Virus record (IMG/VR): IMGVR_UViG_3300045988_059906
Source: a virus
Reading direction: 5' to 3' (one strand)
DNA length: 64,000 nucleotides
This document shows, in pieces, positions 6,167 to 40,056 of the stretch. Position numbers and translations under genes: made by a program. A model generated the notes under the pieces. The model worked only from the letters and a program-made list of their open reading frames with translations, had not been told where the DNA came from and made no database searches. Each line of letters opens with the position of its first letter. Position 1 is the stretch's first letter.

Positions 6167-6441
6167 ATATTGCCTACACATACGTCTTCACTGGATTTTA
6201 TGCTTTATTACGCCAGTTGCTTTGGACAACCTAAATCCTTCAATGCTGTACAATCCTAAAGGCGCCATACAGACTGCCATCGCACCTACTCCCATTACCG
6301 TGTCACGCAACGTATCCTCACCTACTCATGGGAATTGCACCCAACCACTACCTCGGCATTATAGTATCTTAATGAATAATAAACAATGAAACAAACTGGA
6401 AATTAATTTTAAAGTTAATATTATGTCTATAAGATACTAAG

Positions 6442-6516
6442 GGTGTTATGTCAGAATCGAACTGACGACCTCTTGAACCACAATCAAGTGCTCTAACCAA
6501 CTGAGCTAATAACACC
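6442..6516 (-). tRNA. tRNA-His (GTG) with encoded G-1, copy 1
   Basis: Acceptor GTGTTAT/ATAACAC with an extra 5' G opposite C73. Anticodon stem CTTGA/TCAAG, loop TTGTGGT. Confidence 0.75.
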
Positions 6517-6524
6517 ATATATAG

Positions 6525-7031
6525 TTACTCATTCTCGTAACCTTCGCGCACTGCATTTGCAAATACTTGTTTACACATCTCGTATTCTAGAATGGCTAGT
6601 GCTAAGTCTTCTCCTACGTCTTCTACAAACTTGTCTCGGTTATCAGTCTCGTCAAGTTCGTTTAATACCGCTATCAAGTATTCTAGTAGTTCAAGACATC
6701 TATTGTAGCTTTCCCCAACTTTATTAATAATGGCTATCCTATCATTGCTTCTCTTATAGTACTTATGGGTTGAATAATTACAGTATAACACTACTAATGC
6801 ACATATAAGTGTAGTAGTAGTGAATGCTTCATTTATATAACATAAGATACTGTGAGTTACAGTAGCAATTAATACAACTGTATTAGCATAAAACATCCAA
6901 TTTAAAGACTTGAGAGCTTTACGGTGTGATAATAAATTATCAACCTCTTCTTTTACCTCGTTAAGCGATTCTAATTCTTTTTCATACTGTTCACATGATA
7001 CTTCAAGTAGTTCTTCACTCATATTATTCAA
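6525..7031 (-). CDS. hypothetical membrane protein
   Basis: 168 aa with a central hydrophobic segment. Confidence 0.4.
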   Translation of the reverse strand: MNNMSEELLEVSCEQYEKELESLNEVKEEVDNLLSHRKALKSLNWMFYANTVVLIATVTHSILCYINEAFTTTTLICALVVLYCNYSTHKYYKRSNDRIAIINKVGESYNRCLELLEYLIAVLNELDETDNRDKFVEDVGEDLALAILEYEMCKQVFANAVREGYENE

Positions 7032-10587: not shown

Positions 10588-10660
10588 AGTGCGGAAGTCT
10601 AAATATGCTTGACATGGGTTATGCTGTAAGACTTCTTATTATTCATCCAAAATCAAGATG

Positions 10661-10734
10661 TGGGCAAGATAGGACTTGAACCTATGACCCCTACCTTATC
10701 AGAGTAGTGCTCTGACCTACTGAGCTACTTGCCC
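10661..10734 (-). tRNA. tRNA-Ile (GAT)
   Basis: Acceptor GGGCAAG/CTTGCCC, anticodon loop CTGATAA, T arm ATAGG-TTCAAGT-CCTAT. Confidence 0.75.
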
Positions 10735-10874
10735 ATCCACAGAAGACGATACTAATACTAATCACGATAGGAGGTGTGTGCTGACGTCTTCTTAACTAAA
10801 AAAGAAAAACAATACTTTAGTCGAATTAGCGTTACCCGAATCTCACCACGTGGAGGTTTCGACTATGAGATTCT

Positions 10875-10951: not shown

Positions 10952-10955
10952 AAAG

Positions 10956-11027
10956 TGCTCCATACAGGATTCAAACCTGTGACACGTAGGTTTAGGGTCT
11001 ACTGTTCTATCGCTGAACTAATGGAGC
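10956..11027 (-). tRNA. tRNA with CTA anticodon (second putative amber suppressor; C33, Arg-like scaffold)
   Basis: Acceptor GCTCCAT/ATGGAGC, anticodon stem GTAGA/CCTAC with A31.C39, loop CCCTAAA (CTA at positions 34-36, which reads UAG), T arm ACAGG-TTTGAAT-CCTGT. The D arm resembles tRNA-Arg(TCT). Confidence 0.5.
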
Positions 11028-13359: not shown

Positions 13360-15078
13360 CTAGCCTTGTTGAGTGGACACAGTGCGCTTATTATAAATTG
13401 GCTTCTCAGCCTTTGCAGGCTTACTCTGCACGCTTGCATTCTTTCTCGGTGTGTCCTTCTCTAACACCATCATATTCAAGAGTTCTTGATTCATCATGTA
13501 ATCGAACAACTCTTTAGGCGTACTAGGATTCTGGAATCTCTTCTCTCCGGTTATAAATCCAGCAGTGGACTGACTTAATCCGTTAACAAAGAAACAGTTA
13601 GAAACATTGCGAATCAATTCAACTTTAGACTTAGTCTGTTTAGAGGCTAAATGCCAAATAATTAATTTAAACTGTTTAACAAACTCTTTGCTAAATCCAG
13701 CTTTTAAGAGTTTAGATTTAAATTCAATGAATTGTTCACTGGTGTTTCTTAAATGTCCCAATGCTCCGCTAATTACCAAACAGCCATTTGGAAATTCACC
13801 TTCCCGAATTCCTCCAGATTTAATAGATATAAGCATATCTGCAATCATAGACAGAGTTGGACTAGTTACTAAGGCTTCCTCAGTATCTGAAATCCACTTA
13901 TTAGTAGGAGTTGTACCTTCCCACTTACGTAAATCACATCTATTGTTGGCAAATACACCATACATGCCAGAGAACGCTACAGGCATTAATTCGGAATGAT
14001 ACATAGCATAAGCCTTACCAACACTATAAGCAGAAGTTTCAGTAGCTTCTATCTCAGAATAAGCAGAATTACTAATGTCTCTAATTACTAATAGTGGTGA
14101 TACTTTCTTTAGCTTAGCATTCTTCACGAATGTATTAAAACTAACATCTATAGAAGAACCCATGAATTCTGGTACGAACTCTGCAATTTTATCAAGTCCA
14201 AATGGCTTAAATAAATTATGCACAAATCCGTCATTACAGGGCTTTCTACGAGTCTTCAGCCATTTCTGATACTTCTCTGCAAGACCTTGTTGTTTGAGGA
14301 ATTTAGAGCCTACTAGCAGTGCTAGAGCCTTTCCTGGAACTGTATCAAAGTCAATGTCGAGTAATTTCTTATGGCTTATTAATTGCTGCCATTTCATAAC
14401 TGTACCGCTGTTCTTCATCTTTCTATACTTACGATAAGATGAATAGTCTCCTTCCTCTTTCGGTTTACCATAAAGGCCTTCAGCTAGATATTTAGCAACT
14501 ATGTTACGGGCTTTCGCCTCGTCTGTCTTACATATAGTATTAGCTCGAACTCTAGGAAGATACTTCTTTACTAAGTCACATGTTTGCCCTTCTACTAAAC
14601 CAGCATAAATAGTCTTTCTAAAGAAATCCCAATCTAGTCTATGCTTGTATCCATGTAATTGAGCATCCATTACTAACATATTAATAAAGTCCTTCCAGCA
14701 TCCTGCTGCCGCAAAGTAAGGCATATTGGCATGGAATGTAGATTTATGATATGTTGCCAACCACATCATTCTTAATAAACCTTCATTCTTTAGACCACCT
14801 CCTCGCTGTGTGTCTAAGTAAATAACTCCATTAGGAGTAACTACTCTACATTTACGTGTAATAAGTCTTACATAGGCAGTAAATTTGACACACAGCTTTG
14901 GATTGGCCTTCCACAGTTCATACATATCTTGACTAACGTCTTCATAAGAACGTGGTTCAAGATAGTGCGCAAGGTTTACGAATTGGTCCACAAATACTTT
15001 AGTAGGATTTGTATACCTTCGTCCCCCACCTTGAGAGGGCTTAGAGCAAGCCTTTTTAGGCCTTTCATTCATTTCCAT
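13360..15078 (-). CDS. large protein with a C-terminal vWA-like MIDAS motif; possibly TROVE/Ro60-like
   Basis: 572 aa. A helical N-terminal region of about 330 aa is followed by LLVIRDISNSAYS (a DxSxS MIDAS motif). The identity is uncertain. Confidence 0.3.
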   Translation of the reverse strand: MEMNERPKKACSKPSQGGGRRYTNPTKVFVDQFVNLAHYLEPRSYEDVSQDMYELWKANPKLCVKFTAYVRLITRKCRVVTPNGVIYLDTQRGGGLKNEGLLRMMWLATYHKSTFHANMPYFAAAGCWKDFINMLVMDAQLHGYKHRLDWDFFRKTIYAGLVEGQTCDLVKKYLPRVRANTICKTDEAKARNIVAKYLAEGLYGKPKEEGDYSSYRKYRKMKNSGTVMKWQQLISHKKLLDIDFDTVPGKALALLVGSKFLKQQGLAEKYQKWLKTRRKPCNDGFVHNLFKPFGLDKIAEFVPEFMGSSIDVSFNTFVKNAKLKKVSPLLVIRDISNSAYSEIEATETSAYSVGKAYAMYHSELMPVAFSGMYGVFANNRCDLRKWEGTTPTNKWISDTEEALVTSPTLSMIADMLISIKSGGIREGEFPNGCLVISGALGHLRNTSEQFIEFKSKLLKAGFSKEFVKQFKLIIWHLASKQTKSKVELIRNVSNCFFVNGLSQSTAGFITGEKRFQNPSTPKELFDYMMNQELLNMMVLEKDTPRKNASVQSKPAKAEKPIYNKRTVSTQQG

Positions 15079-15276: not shown

Positions 15277-15339
15277 AATACTATGATGGACTCAAACCAT
15301 CTCCACCCCTAGGTGAACTTTCCGTTATTCGAATAGTAC
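15277..15339 (-). ncRNA. incomplete tRNA-like structure lacking an anticodon arm
   Basis: Acceptor-like GTACTAT/ATAGTAT, D arm GAAT-AACGGAAA-GTTC and T arm GATGG-TTTGAGT-CCATC are present. Only 13 nt occupy the position of the 17-nt anticodon arm. Confidence 0.3.
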
Positions 15340-15439
15340 AGGTTTCAACTCTTTATAACGCCTTTAAGTCAAAGTATACTCCGGAATATACTCTTAGTTC
15401 ATCAGACCAAGTTTGCGCTTAGAATTATCTAAGATTAAG

Positions 15440-16935: not shown

Positions 16936-17598
16936 GTCAAAGTGATTTAATTAGTTAATAAGTGGACCATCGCGGACTCGAACCGCGGTCTTCACAACTC
17001 TAAATAATAAGATTACGTGTGTCTCTATTTTATTACATCAGCTGTTGAGTTCAGCATGTAGACAGTTTTATTAGTCTTATCCTGGAACCAGGTGATTAGG
17101 CTGCAATAGCCAAACCAGTACGCCAAAAGCTAATTTACAAACTACCAAACTTAAAGGTTCAGAAGCTGACGCTTCCAAACCTGGGCTGACCGAAGTCGTC
17201 CTTCCACCACTCCATTTACGTTGGAGAACGTCTATTTGTAGCCCATAGATAGGCAGTGGAGATTTCAGCTCTACTAACCTTTGGCTTTCAAGTTAATGCA
17301 TCTAAGCTTCACTGTAACCTGTAGGTACTATGATTCTTCCCTGAAGGTCTCGTTATAACACTTAGATACAAACCTCTTCTGTTTCTAGGTCTCTCCAGTA
17401 ACCCGACTTGATTAATAGTGTCTATTAATAAGCCAGCAGCTTAGGCTGCCATTCTTACAGGTGCAATTTCTGCAGTTATTTGTTTTCTTCGTTTAAAGAG
17501 ATTGCGCTCTACACGTCCTTATAATTCGTAATCGCCTGTCAAATCCAAGTAGGCCCATGTTCCAGTTTATCTCTGATTAGAAAACTGGAGAAAAGAAA

Positions 17599-35291: not shown

Positions 35292-35514
35292 CTATCAGAG
35301 TGTTATGGATTCTCAATTCCTCTTCCGAAATCGGAATTAATTCTCCAAATACTCTTATGTATTTTTGTTCTTTGATTACTAATGATGTGGTAATTTCAGT
35401 GATTACCTCGATGTTAGCATTGTGCCATCTCTTTAAATACTGAGAATGTATTCTTCTAGACAATTCATAGTTGTCTGAGGATGCAATTCTCGCAGCTTTG
35501 AATCTTTTTCTCAT
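35281..35514 (-). CDS. hypothetical protein
   Basis: 77-aa ORF. Confidence 0.3.
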   Translation of the reverse strand: MRKRFKAARIASSDNYELSRRIHSQYLKRWHNANIEVITEITTSLVIKEQKYIRVFGELIPISEEELRIHNTLIVEN

Positions 35515-35711
35515 GGTTTTCTTTTTAATTCGTTAAATCTTTTTCTTGCTAATTTTCCATTCACAAATGTTTCTGTAACTGTTCTGATGCCTTCTATGTG
35601 AATGGTATACTCGAAGGCGTGGGTTCCAGTGAGAGTTATCACTCTTCCCCATGAATCTGTAAATCTTGCGCGAACAGTTGAATCGCAATGTAATCTGTTG
35701 AATTTTCTCAT
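35511..35711 (-). CDS. hypothetical protein
   Basis: 66-aa ORF. Confidence 0.3.
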   Translation of the reverse strand: MRKFNRLHCDSTVRARFTDSWGRVITLTGTHAFEYTIHIEGIRTVTETFVNGKLARKRFNELKRKP

Positions 35712-35725
35712 TTTCTTTTTCTTTT

Positions 35726-35786
35726 AATCCTGACTACCTATTTCTAGGTAGTTTCGTCTTAATTTTCAAAGACTCGTCAGAGGATT
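35726..35786 (-). ncRNA. hammerhead ribozyme (type I), copy 1
   Basis: The minus-strand RNA reads AAUCCU-CUGACGA-GUCUU(UGAAAAUU)AAGAC-GAA-ACUACCUA(GAAA)UAGGUAGU-C|AGGAUU. Conserved cores CUGANGA and GAA, the G10.1:C11.1 pair, a GUC cleavage triplet and a 6-bp stem I are all present. Confidence 0.75.
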
Positions 35787-36272
35787 TTATCTCCAGCAAT
35801 GCTTTTCAAGCATCTTTTGAAAGATAGGAATATCAGAAACAGATGCGAAAAGTAACATACAAGACCTTACTTTAATTACATCGTTTCCAAATATCTCGTA
35901 AACTGATTTCTCATTATTATAGACCGCTTCTGTGATTTCAACTAACCTATCTCTCAATATAGGATGGTTGATATATTCAATAGCTTCATCACGTCCACTT
36001 ATTCCATAATAACGAGACTTTTCACTCGTGCCAAGCCTCCTCATTTGAGGAAAGATAAACCAAATCCAATGTGTTTTCTTCTTCCCTGCTTTGACTTCTT
36101 CCAAGGCAGTTTGATAAGTATTCCACTTATCTTGTGCTTCAATGAATCTGTCAAGTCCAAGATACATTTTGCGAGCAAGTTGTCTTGTTTCTTCTAGAGG
36201 AAGTCCACTCTGATCTAATTGAGAGTGAGGCATAGCCAGTTGGCACCACTCTTTGAATGTAAATTTATTCAT
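35787..36272 (-). CDS. hypothetical protein (HWIWFIFPQ motif)
   Basis: 161-aa ORF. Its stop codon abuts the hammerhead ribozyme. Confidence 0.4.
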   Translation of the reverse strand: MNKFTFKEWCQLAMPHSQLDQSGLPLEETRQLARKMYLGLDRFIEAQDKWNTYQTALEEVKAGKKKTHWIWFIFPQMRRLGTSEKSRYYGISGRDEAIEYINHPILRDRLVEITEAVYNNEKSVYEIFGNDVIKVRSCMLLFASVSDIPIFQKMLEKHCWR

Positions 36273-37455
36273 CTTTATTTAAATGTTTATAACCTAGCAT
36301 TCCCATCATGGTAAGAGATAAGAATGGATTATATAGCTTTTTGGGACTAACATCATACATTCCAGATCCTCCAAATACAGATTTTACAGGAATATCTGGG
36401 CCTACTATAGTAAATACTCCTTTTATAGGGTCAGAATTAAGAACCTATGTTGCATAATCGTCTGTAAGAACACCTTCAGACATATTTACAGAACGTGCTC
36501 TATCCTTGCTTAAATAAGCACCTATTGGACCTCCTGCCCAATTATTAGAAGATGGATTAGCTTTCTGCCTTTTTATAAGCCTAATCTAGTCATCCCAGTT
36601 GGGATTAATTATAGAAGGTTTAACTGGTAGTCCCCAGATTGCAAAGTCTCCGTAAGCTTTTGCTCCTCTTGGATTAGAACTGAACCATTTCTCATAATTC
36701 TGGTTATTTTTTCCGGTTTCAAAACTATGTTTATCCTTAATTCCAGACCTCATTGTGATACCATTATATAAAAGATTCTTACCTTGAGGAGAGTTTGCCT
36801 AGATATAATACATAGTTTCTATGTTGCTTAGATTCTTCCTTCCATTAGCAGTATATCTTCCATTAGGCTATCTTATCAGCTTACCAGACTTAATTAGCTC
36901 ATTATAAGTTTGAACAAACTAGGGAAAAGCTTTTTTAGTGAATAAGTCTATTTCCTCCTGTGACATCTTATGTCCTGAAGCTAGTGATTGCCAATTTTCT
37001 AAAGAATAATCAAGTCCCGTTCGAAGTCTAAACTTTTCTGCTTCTTCGTTATGCTCTTTGATTACTTTCTTTTGTTGATTAGATCTGGCTTTAGCCTTAG
37101 ACTTATTTTCCTCAATTCTTTTTTCTACGGCTTGAGTCTGTTTGTAAGATGATAAGCTTTGAAGTTTTCCTTCTTTATTCCTAATGTATTCAACTCCCTA
37201 TGGGTCAAATATTCTTCCCTTCGTTTCTCGCCAACCTTTCTTTATTAAAACGTTTGAAAGTTTCTTTATTTGCCCTCCTGTGATTCCTGGAATAATTAAG
37301 CCTGTAGCTGCTAAACCCATACTTATATAATCTTTATCTTTTGCGGCATGAATAAAATCATGTGCGTCCTATGCTTCTCCAACTCCAGGAATAAATCCTG
37401 CTAGGAAGTCTAGTATAGGATTTTTGTCTCTAAATTCTTTTACTTTGTCTTCCAT
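36265..37455 (-). CDS. hypothetical protein encoded with in-frame TAG codons (TAG-containing island in the standard-code module)
   Basis: Read by eye, the minus-strand frame stays open from ATG (37455) to TAA (36267) over about 397 codons with at least 8 TAG and no TAA or TGA. The six-frame track shows no long ORF here for that reason. Confidence 0.5.
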
Positions 37456-37522
37456 AAATATTTAATTTTTATTTATAGAATACTACACATTTGTTTGCTA
37501 AATAGCAAGTATTTTACACTAC

Positions 37523-37544
37523 GTAGGTAGACTATTCTACCTAC
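37523..37544. promoter_or_regulatory. perfect 8-bp inverted repeat (gtaggtag..ctacctac) upstream of the TAG-containing gene
   Basis: Palindrome with a 6-nt spacer, about 70 nt upstream of the start codon at 37455. Confidence 0.35.
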
Positions 37545-37559
37545 CGCTCTCCGCCTAAA

Positions 37560-37586
37560 GCCTATTTATACTCGCGAAGTCGAGTT
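37560..37586 (-). promoter_or_regulatory. conserved hairpin-plus-tataaa element, copy A
   Basis: gcctatttatactcgcgaagtcgagtt. The copy at 38541-38567 has the same stem actcg/cgagt with a different loop, and both lie upstream of minus-strand genes. Confidence 0.35.
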
Positions 37587-37920
37587 AGAATGTTTTGTAT
37601 CCGTACTTTTGCAAAACTGATCTTAAATCACTTAGCGATTTCCTTCCAACACCAGGCATTTTCATGAAATCACGCCAAGAATAGTTTTCCATGAAAATGT
37701 TGAGAGAGATATAAACTTGATCATCCAACATAGCTCTAATACGGCTAGCTGTCCTAGGTTGCATTTCTGGAAGAATACTCGCCAGTGTAATGTTTCTATT
37801 TTTCCTTTCAAGTGCTGTAATCTCTGGATAAATACCTAAAGACCATAATACGGAACAAAGTAAATCAGCCTCTCTATCAGAGAGAACTTTTGTTGTTTCT
37901 AGAATTTTTATCTCTTTCAT
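37585..37920 (-). CDS. hypothetical protein
   Basis: 111-aa ORF. Confidence 0.35.
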   Translation of the reverse strand: MKEIKILETTKVLSDREADLLCSVLWSLGIYPEITALERKNRNITLASILPEMQPRTASRIRAMLDDQVYISLNIFMENYSWRDFMKMPGVGRKSLSDLRSVLQKYGYKTF

Positions 37921-38244
37921 ATATAACTAGTATTGCATTTTACACCTAAAACTCTATGAGCAGCAACTCACATTCAAAGAATAGTTTGCTTGCGTTTTAT
38001 AATAAAGAAACTGGTGCCCTCAATGTCTTGGGAAGTTATTGAGTTTTTTAAAGAAAGCTATACTAAATCCCATTCACGTAAGGCTTCTTCTGGAGTACAT
38101 CCAGCCTTAATAGACTGAAGTACTTCATATTGAAGACCATATTGAGCAGCAATTTGCATAGCTTTTTCTTCTCTTACCATTTTGGCATAGAGAGTTTCTG
38201 TTTTCTTTTTTGTCAATTTGCTCATAATATTTATGTTTTAGTTA

Positions 38245-38472
38245 TTAAAACTCTAGCATGAGATATTCCCATACATCCCTTTCTTCGTTCGACTGTTTTA
38301 AAGGAATTAAATTCCCCTTTGGTTCGATATAGAGATCCGAAACCTCAAAGGAACACCCGATAGATAGAAAATATCCAGCAAACGCTAATACCTCGTCATA
38401 ATTATTACATTCAAATCCACAGCTAGCAGAAGCAAAATGCAGTTCCTCTGGGATAATAACTCTTTTTTTCAT
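38245..38472 (-). CDS. hypothetical protein
   Basis: 75-aa ORF. Confidence 0.3.
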   Translation of the reverse strand: MKKRVIIPEELHFASASCGFECNNYDEVLAFAGYFLSIGCSFEVSDLYIEPKGNLIPLKQSNEERDVWEYLMLEF

Positions 38473-38540
38473 TTTTTGTTTTGATTAGTTAATACAACCC
38501 AAGTAAGATGTAAAGTCCTACTTGACGCACTAGACCTAAT

Positions 38541-38567
38541 GCCTGTTTATACTCGTCTAGTCGAGTT
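38541..38567 (-). promoter_or_regulatory. conserved hairpin-plus-tataaa element, copy B
   Basis: gcctgtttatactcgtctagtcgagtt. See copy A. Confidence 0.35.
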
Positions 38568-38738
38568 TTGAAATAGATATGATGTTAGTTCTAGCAATTG
38601 TACATAAAGGTAAATTATTATCCTTTAAAGGCTGAACAAAATTATCGTCCACTTTATACTCGTTACAATATACGTAGTCAATGCCATATCTATATTTAAA
38701 AGTAATCTTATATTTCATAATTTTACTTACTTTGAGTT

Positions 38739-38791
38739 AATCCTGACACAAATGTGTTTCGTCGCAATTTTCAGCGACTCATCAGAGGATT
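38739..38791 (-). ncRNA. hammerhead ribozyme (type I), copy 2
   Basis: The minus-strand RNA reads AAUCCU-CUGAUGA-GUCGC(UGAAAAUU)GCGAC-GAA-ACAC(AUUU)GUGU-C|AGGAUU. The cores match copy 1, with compensatory changes in stems II and III. Confidence 0.75.
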
Positions 38792-38820
38792 TTTAAAAAT
38801 ATCCCCACAGCGGTGGGGAT
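38791..38820 (-). terminator. rho-independent terminator (minus strand)
   Basis: Hairpin atccccacagcggtggggat (7-bp GC-rich stem), followed on the minus strand by a U run (rc of aaaaat). Confidence 0.5.
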
Positions 38821-39861
38821 AAAAAATGAACACTATCAAAAGACCTTCCTGTGCCACTCTCCTTTGAATTGTTTCACAACAATTACATAGTCTCTGGGCG
38901 TACTCATTATAGTCTCCAATAATACACAACAATAGTTCCCTACTCTGGACTTGAACCAGAATCTTCTCCTTTAGAGAGAGATATACTGACTTGTACTAGT
39001 AGGGAAATACTCCACTGCCTAAGCTCCCTATGGGAGCTGTAGGCTATCTAGAATAAGATGGAGAGTTATTTAGATAGTTTCCTATGCTATCTACGTTACT
39101 AACGTTCACTAAGAATATAGGTAGCTAATCCATATTCTTGCGACTGAGTTCGAGGTAGGAAATATACCCTTATGAGGTATCCTCTTATCAGCTAACCTTA
39201 TTTTAATCTAGCGGCTTATACTAGGCAACTTCTAAATAAATAAAATGCATAACTATAAGTGATATGCTTTGGTCGACTGGCATATCAGCAGTACTTCATA
39301 ATATTGCTATAAGTGACCAACCCTATAGCTCAATCCTCTTGTAATAGTGTTTAAGTTTGCGAATATACACATTACAATCGTAGCAGTTATTTTCGGATAT
39401 TGGGCTATCTGCGTAACCCCGCTTTTTGTTGCCTTTTTATGGGCTAATGTTAGAGTAAATAATCATTGTAGTATGAGTTATAAAACTCGTCCTACTGGCG
39501 ATTTTTTGAAAACTGGAAAAAGTCGGAAAATTGGCTGCCGACGTTCTGGACAATTATTCTCCTTACTCTCCATATTTTCACGTGAAACATACACGATTTT
39601 ACTAGAAATGATAGTCTTTCCTATCAGCCAGACATAAAACTAAAACTACTACAAAAGTTAACTCGGTTTTTGATTTTTTTTTGTTTTGTTGTTGATTTCT
39701 CCGTTGACCAATGTTCCAATGATGGAGTTCATATGGGCATTTTATTTTAACTCATAATACCTTAGAGCTGCACGTTTGACTTATTTTAAATCTCGTTGTG
39801 CGCTGAGATTGACTCTAAGATTCGGTCACACTCTCACTTATTTATACACGAGAGAGTCGTG

Positions 39862-40056
39862 TTAATCTACAAAGACAATTCTTATTACTTTTGGGATGTC
39901 TTCTTCTGACTTTTGATAAGTCATAATCCATGCTTCAGAAGCTTTACAATAAACTCTGTCCGCTTTGAGATTTAACTTTTCTCCAGTCTTTGGGTCATAG
40001 ATTGCTCCCCAGCTATACAAACACTTTTTCGTTCTGAACTTTTTTCTCGTGTCCAT
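39862..40056 (-). CDS. hypothetical protein
   Basis: 64-aa ORF. Confidence 0.3.
   Translation of the reverse strand: MDTRKKFRTKKCLYSWGAIYDPKTGEKLNLKADRVYCKASEAWIMTYQKSEEDIPKVIRIVFVD

Follow-up and report, generated by a model that had tools for sequence, protein, structure and literature searches.

What do self-cleaving RNAs do between the protein-coding genes of a phage? The question is raised by a 64,000-nucleotide (nt) stretch of viral DNA (IMG/VR record IMGVR_UViG_3300045988_059906; the whole stretch is referred to here as the window), in which two hammerhead ribozymes, HH1 (positions 35786 to 35726) and HH2 (38791 to 38739), lie between genes on the minus strand. We consider it likely that both are functional type I self-cleaving ribozymes of a subclass found in phages and prophages, and that they would cut polycistronic RNA at gene junctions. 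What the locus and its relatives show is the motif, its covariation, a conserved position between open reading frames (ORFs), and an orthologous junction at which one ribozyme class stands in for another.

The two copies were recognized by sequence, descriptor scan, our own covariance model and minimum-free-energy folding. As RNA, HH1 reads AAUCCU-CUGACGA-GUCUU(UGAAAAUU)AAGAC-GAA-ACUACCUA(GAAA)UAGGUAGU-C/AGGAUU and HH2 reads AAUCCU-CUGAUGA-GUCGC(UGAAAAUU)GCGAC-GAA-ACAC(AUUU)GUGU-C/AGGAUU, where the slash marks the predicted cut. Stem I (AAUCCU/AGGAUU) is identical in the two copies. Stem II has 5 bp in HH1 and is GUCGC/GCGAC in HH2, with the same UGAAAAUU loop, and stem III has 8 bp and a GAAA loop in HH1 and 4 bp and an AUUU loop in HH2. 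The hammerhead core C3-U4-G5-A6-N7-G8-A9 between stems I and II is complete in both, as are G12-A13-A14, the A15.1-U16.1 pair that closes stem III, a non-G residue at H17 (here C17), and the G10.1-C11.1 pair that closes stem II (GUC.../...GAC). The topology is type I, with loops closing stems II and III while stem I stays open, and the minimum-free-energy folds of both copies reproduce the three-way junction. C17 lies at 35732 in HH1 and at 38745 in HH2, placing the predicted cuts between 35732 and 35731 and between 38745 and 38744. Sequence, core positions and folds thus bear out the first-pass annotation of this DNA, which had described two canonical type I hammerheads with a shared core on the minus strand. 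A loose hammerhead descriptor matched only HH1 and HH2 on either strand of the window, and found five sites in 300 simulated windows of matched dinucleotide content (0.017 per 64 kb). Neither the descriptor scan nor our covariance model with filters off detected further hammerheads in the window.

HH1 and HH2 belong to a subclass defined by a GUCNN/NNGAC stem II, the 8-nt UGAAAAUU loop, a stem I of 5-6 bp, and flanking A residues. We searched IMG/VR with a pattern that fixed the core and stem II only (CTGANGAGTCNNTGAAAATTNNGACGAAAC) and left stems I and III and the NN pairing free. The pattern occurs in at least 119 loci, and 110 of 130 instances among the matches listed are complete, that is, an A-U pair closes stem III, position 17 is not G, and stem I pairs over 4 bp or more in the right register. 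Stem I is nearly always 5-6 bp long in these listed matches and has many different sequences. In bacterial genomes, taken at one per species, the same pattern is found in at least 120 loci, mainly in gut Clostridia and in some Bacteroidales. Among the bacterial matches listed, 104 of 122 instances are complete, with 57 distinct stem I sequences, and H17 is C in 97 of the 104 copies and, by the parse criterion, never G. A literature search for the stem II sequence of the subclass returned nothing relevant.

Stems II and III differ between HH1 and HH2 by compensatory changes, as the first-pass annotation had noted, but two sequences are weak evidence of covariation, and the strong signal that it had claimed emerges only with more than 200 homologues. 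In an alignment of 56 sequences, 97.1% of cells hold standard pairs, compared with 67.9% after shuffling and 29-44% when the partner is slid by 1-3 columns; this percentage is partly set by construction, because the alignment was drawn from parsed hits, and the unbiased figure is the completeness of about 85% among unselected pattern matches. The covariation score of the same alignment is 0.692 versus 0.136. Double-sided changes are seen in 12 of 17 pairs (six of six in stem I, two in stem II and four of six in stem III). The covariance model built from this alignment (R1) scores HH1 at 77.9 bits and HH2 at 72.9 bits, both being part of its training set, and the next best hit in the window reaches 12.7 bits.

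The sequence beside stem I is also conserved. The 5′ flank is AA in 85 of 96 distinct copies and in 85 of 104 bacterial-genome copies, and the 3′ flank is AA in 47 of 96. By triplet, the AA before stem I belongs to TAA (38 copies), AAA (33), GAA (8) or CAA (6). Because AA is kept outside stop codons too, the flanking A residues are probably structural, with a stop codon often superimposed on them. They are compatible with a contact between stem I and loop II, the loop being fixed by the search pattern itself.

How are these ribozymes placed relative to genes? Among the 96 copies, the stop of the nearest upstream ORF on the same strand falls no more than 5 nt from stem I in 42 of 73 cases, with direct abutment in 21; in eight further copies, the UGA in the core CUGA itself serves as the stop codon of that ORF. 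The next start codon on the same strand lies within 60 nt of the hammerhead end in 63 of 87 cases, mostly at 14-60 nt. ORFs on the opposite strand show no proximity (median distances of 180 and 185 nt). A three-hammerhead array in another locus (L038) repeats the arrangement of stop codon, ribozyme and start codon gene by gene. In the window, the gene upstream of HH1 (35787 to 36272, minus strand) encodes a DUF1810 protein (PF08837, E 1e-41), and its TAA (35789-35787) adjoins stem I, so the earlier statement that HH1 begins exactly at this stop codon holds. The first gene 3′ of HH1 is ORF66 (35511 to 35711, minus strand), which starts 20 nt past the cut site, and the first gene 3′ of HH2 is ORF53 (38557 to 38718, minus strand), which starts 26 nt past it. 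HH2 does lie directly 3′ of a terminator-like hairpin, as the first-pass annotation had proposed, but the gene with in-frame TAG codons that it had placed nearby is more than 1.2 kb away. That gene (36265 to 37455, minus strand) has 396 codons, contains seven in-frame TAG codons, ends in TAA, and adjoins the DUF1810 gene and the second of two pistol ribozymes. A Pfam search of the neighboring proteins identified DUF1810 only, and ten proteins compared with PHROGs gave no match.

The two hammerheads are part of a dense series of RNA elements. Along the minus strand the order is RAGATH-14 RNA, a tRNA with a CUA anticodon, the hairpin, HH2, ORF53, pistol 1, ORF75, ORF55, a conserved structured RNA, ORF111, pistol 2, the TAG-containing gene, the DUF1810 gene, HH1 and ORF66. 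The first-pass annotation had mentioned neither the pistols nor the RAGATH-14 RNA nor the CUA-anticodon tRNA near the hammerheads. RAGATH-14 (39060 to 39233, minus strand) scores 167.2 bits (gathering threshold 149.1), and the tRNA, of the UAG suppressor type, occupies 38935 to 39005 on the minus strand, 143 nt upstream of HH2. The hairpin (38821-38800, in an element that spans 38795 to 38821, minus strand) has 9 bp (UAUCCCCAC-loop-GUGGGGAUA) followed by a U-tract, and it is kept, with a varying loop, in the related loci L055, L081, L108 and L077. RAGATH-14, tRNA, hairpin and hammerhead, in that order, form a conserved module that is seen in relatives.

Both pistols show the same pattern of stop codon, ribozyme, short gap and start codon. 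Pistol 1 (38493 to 38566, minus strand) scores 64.2 bits and pistol 2 (37517 to 37585, minus strand) 63.3 bits, against a gathering threshold of 34.5. The TAG stop of ORF53 (38559-38557) lies in pistol 1 itself, within ten bases of its 5′ end, and the start codon that follows, at 38472, is 21 nt past the ribozyme. The stop codon of ORF111 (37587-37585) abuts pistol 2, which is kept in L234-L237, and the start of the TAG-containing gene, at 37455, lies 62 nt beyond it.

Most closely related to the window are contigs of about 180-190 kb from the human gut in IMG/VR. Megablast and tblastn searches of deposited phages gave human-faecal fragments and short crAss-like matches, but no closely related cultured phage. 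One syntenic sequence of 80-85% identity (L290; DXLM01000001.1, 186,052 bp, similar in size to the related phages) is binned as a Bacteroides sp. metagenome-assembled genome, which is a weak hint at a Bacteroides host or a binning artefact. For three relatives (L055, L081 and L108), alignment with the window covers 41996 down to 38756, then resumes at 35788 and continues downward, and what the two aligned blocks have in common is the 38-nt 5′ half of one hammerhead. This hammerhead has the upstream flank (the hairpin) of HH2, and the stems and ORF66 leader flank of HH1. The gene block of about 3 kb that the three relatives lack (35789 to 38755, minus strand) is bracketed by the shared hammerhead 5′ halves as direct repeats, and could be an insertion in the window or a deletion in L055, L081 and L108.

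In at least 12 relatives, with at least four different upstream blocks, homology to the window resumes at the first base of HH1. Breakpoints were also seen where HH2 has its edge (38788), directly past pistol 1 (38491, the first base outside it), where the conserved RNA begins (38049-52) and where the tRNA ends (38934). The slot after the tRNA hairpin holds an HH2-type hammerhead in the window, L077 and L047, an HH1-type hammerhead in L055, L081 and L108, a RAGATH-1 hammerhead in L235 and L237, and nothing in L234 and L236. The leader of ORF75 is preceded by pistol 1 in the window and by a RAGATH-1 hammerhead in L235 (68.8 bits, above gathering), where the orthologous leader reads aacuaau... 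followed by MKKRYIIPEELHFAS. This exchange of one ribozyme class for another suggests that the cut itself is selected, and it is the strongest comparative argument that we have. The ribozymes also mark sites of modular exchange and may mediate it. The match between breakpoints and gene boundaries is partly expected, because the intergenic space is largely filled by these RNAs.

These data suggest the following mechanism. A long minus-strand RNA would carry both hammerheads, HH2 being reached by read-through of the hairpin after the tRNA. Each hammerhead would then fold and cut 3′ of C17 during transcription. Type I topology puts the cut six nt before the 3′ end of the motif, so nearly the whole ribozyme would stay on the upstream fragment, which would retain its stop codon and gain a compact folded 3′ end with a 2′,3′-cyclic phosphate. 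The downstream fragment would begin with a 5′-OH and the 6-nt AGGAUU, followed by an A-rich leader of about 15-20 nt up to the next start codon. The result would be gene-sized mRNAs derived from polycistronic RNA, each with a downstream leader that is independent of the sequence upstream. The two pistols, members of a class that likewise cuts near its own 3′ end, would do the same job at neighboring junctions. Engineered insulators of the RiboJ type remove variable upstream RNA and leave a constant leader, and their analogy to the hammerheads of the window is functional only. We infer cleavage itself, and an effect on the stability or translation of the RNA, from the anatomy of the motif and from known hammerhead chemistry. 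A role in transcript processing, which the first-pass annotation had already suggested, matches both the conserved placement between same-strand ORFs and the proposal made for prophage hammerheads by Perreault et al. (2011; PMC3088659).

Several observations weigh against this interpretation. At gathering thresholds, Rfam reports no hammerhead in the window. The first-pass annotation had named scores below these thresholds as a result that would count against its prediction, and every hammerhead model does score below its threshold; in formal terms, this check went against it. When Rfam was also run permissively (E≤10), HH1 scored 20.6 bits with RF00163 (Hammerhead_1; gathering 34) in an alignment to the whole model (1-45), losing score at loop insertions of 12 and 14 nt. 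HH2 reached 28.2 bits with RF00008 (Hammerhead_3; gathering 48.5) in a partial alignment (positions 6-49 of 54), and less than this with RF00163. With the RAGATH-1 hammerhead model (RF03152; gathering 56.3), HH1 scored 28.9 and HH2 20.0 bits, and the positions of the extra 5′ hairpin of that model are unpaired in both. In addition, stem III of HH2 has four pairs only, and HH2 directly follows a terminator-like hairpin and would be made only on read-through. Crude ORF calling places 12 of the 96 copies within ORFs of 100 amino acids or more, on either strand. No pairing partner for the tertiary contact needed by fast natural hammerheads was found in the subclass. Finally, reviews consider it an open question what ribozymes do in bacteria and phages (PMC6765202).

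The low Rfam scores lose their force on comparison with related loci, where Rfam at gathering missed 11 of 11 hammerheads of the same subclass. Because these clear members were missed as well, we judge sub-threshold scores to be uninformative here and the failure of Rfam to be a limit of its models, and no evidence against the motif. HH1 and HH2 are hammerheads by structural definition that fall outside RF00163, RF00008 and RF03152 as thresholded. The same scores are the point in favor of regarding HH1 and HH2 as decayed or chance look-alikes without activity, to which we give very little credence: neither core shows any deviation, the chance expectation per window is that of the simulations above, and covariation is extensive in two independent collections. 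Equally little credence is due to the idea that the pair excises the 3,013-nt RNA between the two cuts, whose ends could then base-pair and be joined to give a circle like those of retrozymes and viroid-like RNAs. The identity of stem I in copies that differ in stems II and III would fit such a circle, as would the type I topology, which leaves the catalytic part at the 3′ end of the excised RNA. However, the excised RNA would itself be cut by the two pistols that it contains, a single hammerhead is present in the locus DNA examined for relatives that share this stem I, and stem I sequences in the tandem arrays of other lineages are mutually incompatible. Moreover, no spliced or circular products turned up when Perreault et al. 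searched for them among clustered hammerheads (PMC3088659).

A more serious alternative, if still an unlikely one in our view, is that the ribozymes matter mainly as DNA, namely as conserved linkers for homologous recombination of accessory blocks, with cleavage secondary or a mere passenger. The one hybrid hammerhead of L055, L081 and L108, where the window has two around the 3-kb block, speaks for this, and the resumption of homology at HH1 and the other breakpoints at HH2, pistol 1, the conserved RNA and the tRNA point the same way. Yet covarying stems around an invariant core indicate selection on an RNA fold and not on DNA identity, breakpoints at gene boundaries would match any intergenic occupant, and the pistol and RAGATH-1 hammerhead before ORF75 are non-homologous, so that homologous recombination between copies cannot explain that junction. 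The tight spacing to stop codons, including the abutting stop at HH1 itself and the core UGA of the eight further copies, could instead mean that a terminating ribosome covers stem I and the core. The cut would then be made only when the upstream ORF is untranslated, or only ahead of the first ribosome, and upstream translation would decide the fate of the downstream mRNA. We hold this to be improbable in general, since the AA before stem I also occurs outside stop codons and its conservation may be structural, and since a hairpin and not an ORF end precedes HH2. Hammerheads also usually fold and cut fast and during transcription, which counts against control by the ribosome.

Less probable again is an explanation by analogy with theta ribozymes, which flank suppressor tRNAs in recoded gut phages (PMC10879173): HH2 would belong to a unit with RAGATH-14 and the CUA tRNA, set the 3′ end of its transcript and control the supply of suppressor tRNA. 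The order of these elements and a gap of 140-143 nt between tRNA and hammerhead are kept in the window, L081, L055 and L108, and the crAss-like phage cr53_1 has a hammerhead about 30 nt past its RAGATH-14. But theta ribozymes lie within 5 nt of their tRNA, whereas the 143 nt before HH2 include the terminator-like hairpin, and L234 and L236 keep RAGATH-14 and the tRNA with no hammerhead after them. Only five of the 96 subclass copies have a same-strand tRNA within 300 nt upstream, and tRNA processing was rejected as a general role of the subclass on this count. None of these explanations displaces the processing of polycistronic transcripts as the preferred account, and both the translation-coupled mechanism and the setting of a 3′ end after RAGATH-14 and the tRNA could hold alongside it.

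It is already established that hammerheads occur between phage genes and that they cluster with pistol and other ribozymes (PMC3088659, PMC4604425, PMC6765202). Clustered hammerheads in prophages flank varying genes and cleave in vitro within polycistronic constructs of about 2 kb, and transcript processing has been proposed as their role (PMC3088659); hammerhead, twister and pistol ribozymes are associated with phage genes and with one another (PMC4604425, PMC6765202). The type I, II and III prophage clusters of Perreault et al. (2011; PMC3088659) resemble the hammerheads of the window in ribozyme class, gene-flanking arrangement and proposed role. The subclass differs from them in its fixed stem II and loop (GUCNN-UGAAAAUU-NNGAC), its stem I of 5-6 bp, its flanking A residues, the lack of an obvious pseudoknot, its occurrence here in a TAG-recoding gut phage, and copies that score below Rfam gathering thresholds. 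Nearest in form is the RAGATH-1 hammerhead (RF03152), which is also type I, with a short stem I, an A-rich 5′ stretch (UAUAAAAU) and a ribozyme-rich or phage context, but the window copies lack its extra 5′ hairpin and have a longer stem II. The consensus stem II and loop of Hammerhead_3 (RF00008), GUCcc-UGAaAu-ggGAC, is nearly that of HH1 and HH2; RF00008, however, is type III, with an open stem III, whereas HH1 and HH2 are type I. The pistol, hatchet and twister regions of Weinberg et al. (2015, as cited in PMC4604425) share the neighborhood and the slot between ORFs, with unrelated folds and cores. Theta ribozymes are likewise self-cleaving and lie near suppressor tRNAs in TAG-recoding gut phages (PMC10879173); they are hepatitis delta virus (HDV)-like and process the tRNA that they adjoin, whereas HH2 is a hammerhead well downstream, past a hairpin, and most hammerheads of the subclass are not near tRNAs. 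Modestly new in this study are the size of a subclass missed by Rfam, the rule of stop-codon abutment, the class swap at an orthologous junction, and the insertion or deletion bounded by hammerheads.

The window comes from a phage that reads TAG as a sense codon, as concluded from three CUA-anticodon tRNAs (at 10955, 38935 and 41412) together with a tripling of plus-strand ORF length when TAG is read as sense. Altogether 43 tRNA genes occur in the 64 kb, mostly on the minus strand within 1-34000, and cover most amino acids. The spacing from tRNA to hammerhead is the same in L081, L055 and L108, and the tRNA at this position in L108 is a tRNA-Gln(CUG), which suggests that the suppressor arose from tRNA-Gln and that TAG is read as Gln. 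ORF53 and ORF55 end in TAG (at 38557-38559 and 38058-38060, respectively), while the co-directional 396-codon gene uses TAG as sense seven times. With its TAG read through, ORF53 would span all of pistol 1 and end at a TAA just beyond it. This mixed use of TAG in one co-directional block hints at code-dependent (temporal) expression within one transcript.

The conserved structured RNA between ORF55 and ORF111 (37935 to 38049, minus strand) is an undescribed element. Its 5′ module (AAAAAACUCAAUAACUUCCCAAGACAUUGAGGGCACCAGUUU) is shared at 100% identity by many Crassvirales (Suoliviridae) phages. Next comes a variable hairpin (about 20-135 nt), which is closed by CUUAnnn/nnnUAAG and covaries richly, and then a 3′ module (UUUUAGGUGUAAAAUGC). 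At least 118 IMG/VR loci carry this RNA, which occurs in ribozyme-rich regions and is spaced less tightly relative to ORFs than the hammerheads are. Rfam 15 gave no match to it, a literature search for its sequence gave nothing relevant, and its folding z-score is not significant. An HDV-like fold, fitted by eye, gave no convincing fit and was dropped. Candidates for its nature are a new ribozyme, a terminator or antiterminator device, and a small RNA. In cr53_1 (L121, 1374-2730) this RNA, RAGATH-14, a hammerhead and two hatchets share 1.4 kb of unannotated intergenic DNA.

Further RNA candidates occur elsewhere in the window. An HDV-like candidate (10810-10873, minus strand; RF02682, 38.1 bits, gathering 44, E 0.0018) sits between a CUA tRNA (10955-11027) and a tRNA-Ile (10660-10734), and is not tRNA-adjacent in the way that theta ribozymes are. 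There is a transfer-messenger RNA-like match at 16960-17556 on the minus strand (33.8 bits versus gathering 47, E 6e-10); L047, which carries an HH2-type hammerhead, has such a match at 6348-6800, above gathering. A RAGATH-34 RNA (15335-15432, minus strand; 86.9 bits, gathering 60.7) lies upstream of a 572-amino-acid ORF (13360-15078). The ORF was considered as a Ro60/TROVE protein beside RAGATH-34, and this was dropped as it has no Pfam match. Finally, 92 nt at 39771-39862, just downstream of the ORF at 39862-40056, are 92% identical to an unannotated region of the crAss-like phage cr272_1.

The locus contributes no new ribozyme class, but it provides unusually clean comparative material for the question of what ribozymes do in such genomes (PMC6765202). 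Standard Rfam annotation misses the subclass, although hundreds of genomes of gut phages and Clostridia carry it. The proximity of ribozymes to a CUA-anticodon tRNA and to a gene with recoded TAG bears on how expression is laid out in recoded phages, and an insertion or deletion bounded by two hammerheads ties ribozymes to modular genome exchange. In T4-type phages, PeSL "mobile regulatory cassettes", which are DNA elements made of a promoter and a stem-loop and are not ribozymes, are short conserved elements that flank accessory ORFs in hyperplastic regions, at module boundaries. We tentatively suggest, as a possibility that falls somewhat short of an even chance, that several ribozyme classes (the subclass of HH1 and HH2, the RAGATH-1 hammerhead, pistol, and perhaps the conserved RNA at 38049-37935) are portable junction modules in this lineage of TAG-recoding gut phages, with a causal part in exchange. 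If so, as RNA they would insulate accessory genes from the sequence upstream, and as DNA they would offer, in their conserved sequences and sharp edges, the sites for insertion, deletion and exchange of gene blocks. HH1 and HH2 would then be the direct repeats left by one exchange event, and the ribozymes of these phages would be the counterpart of the PeSL cassettes.

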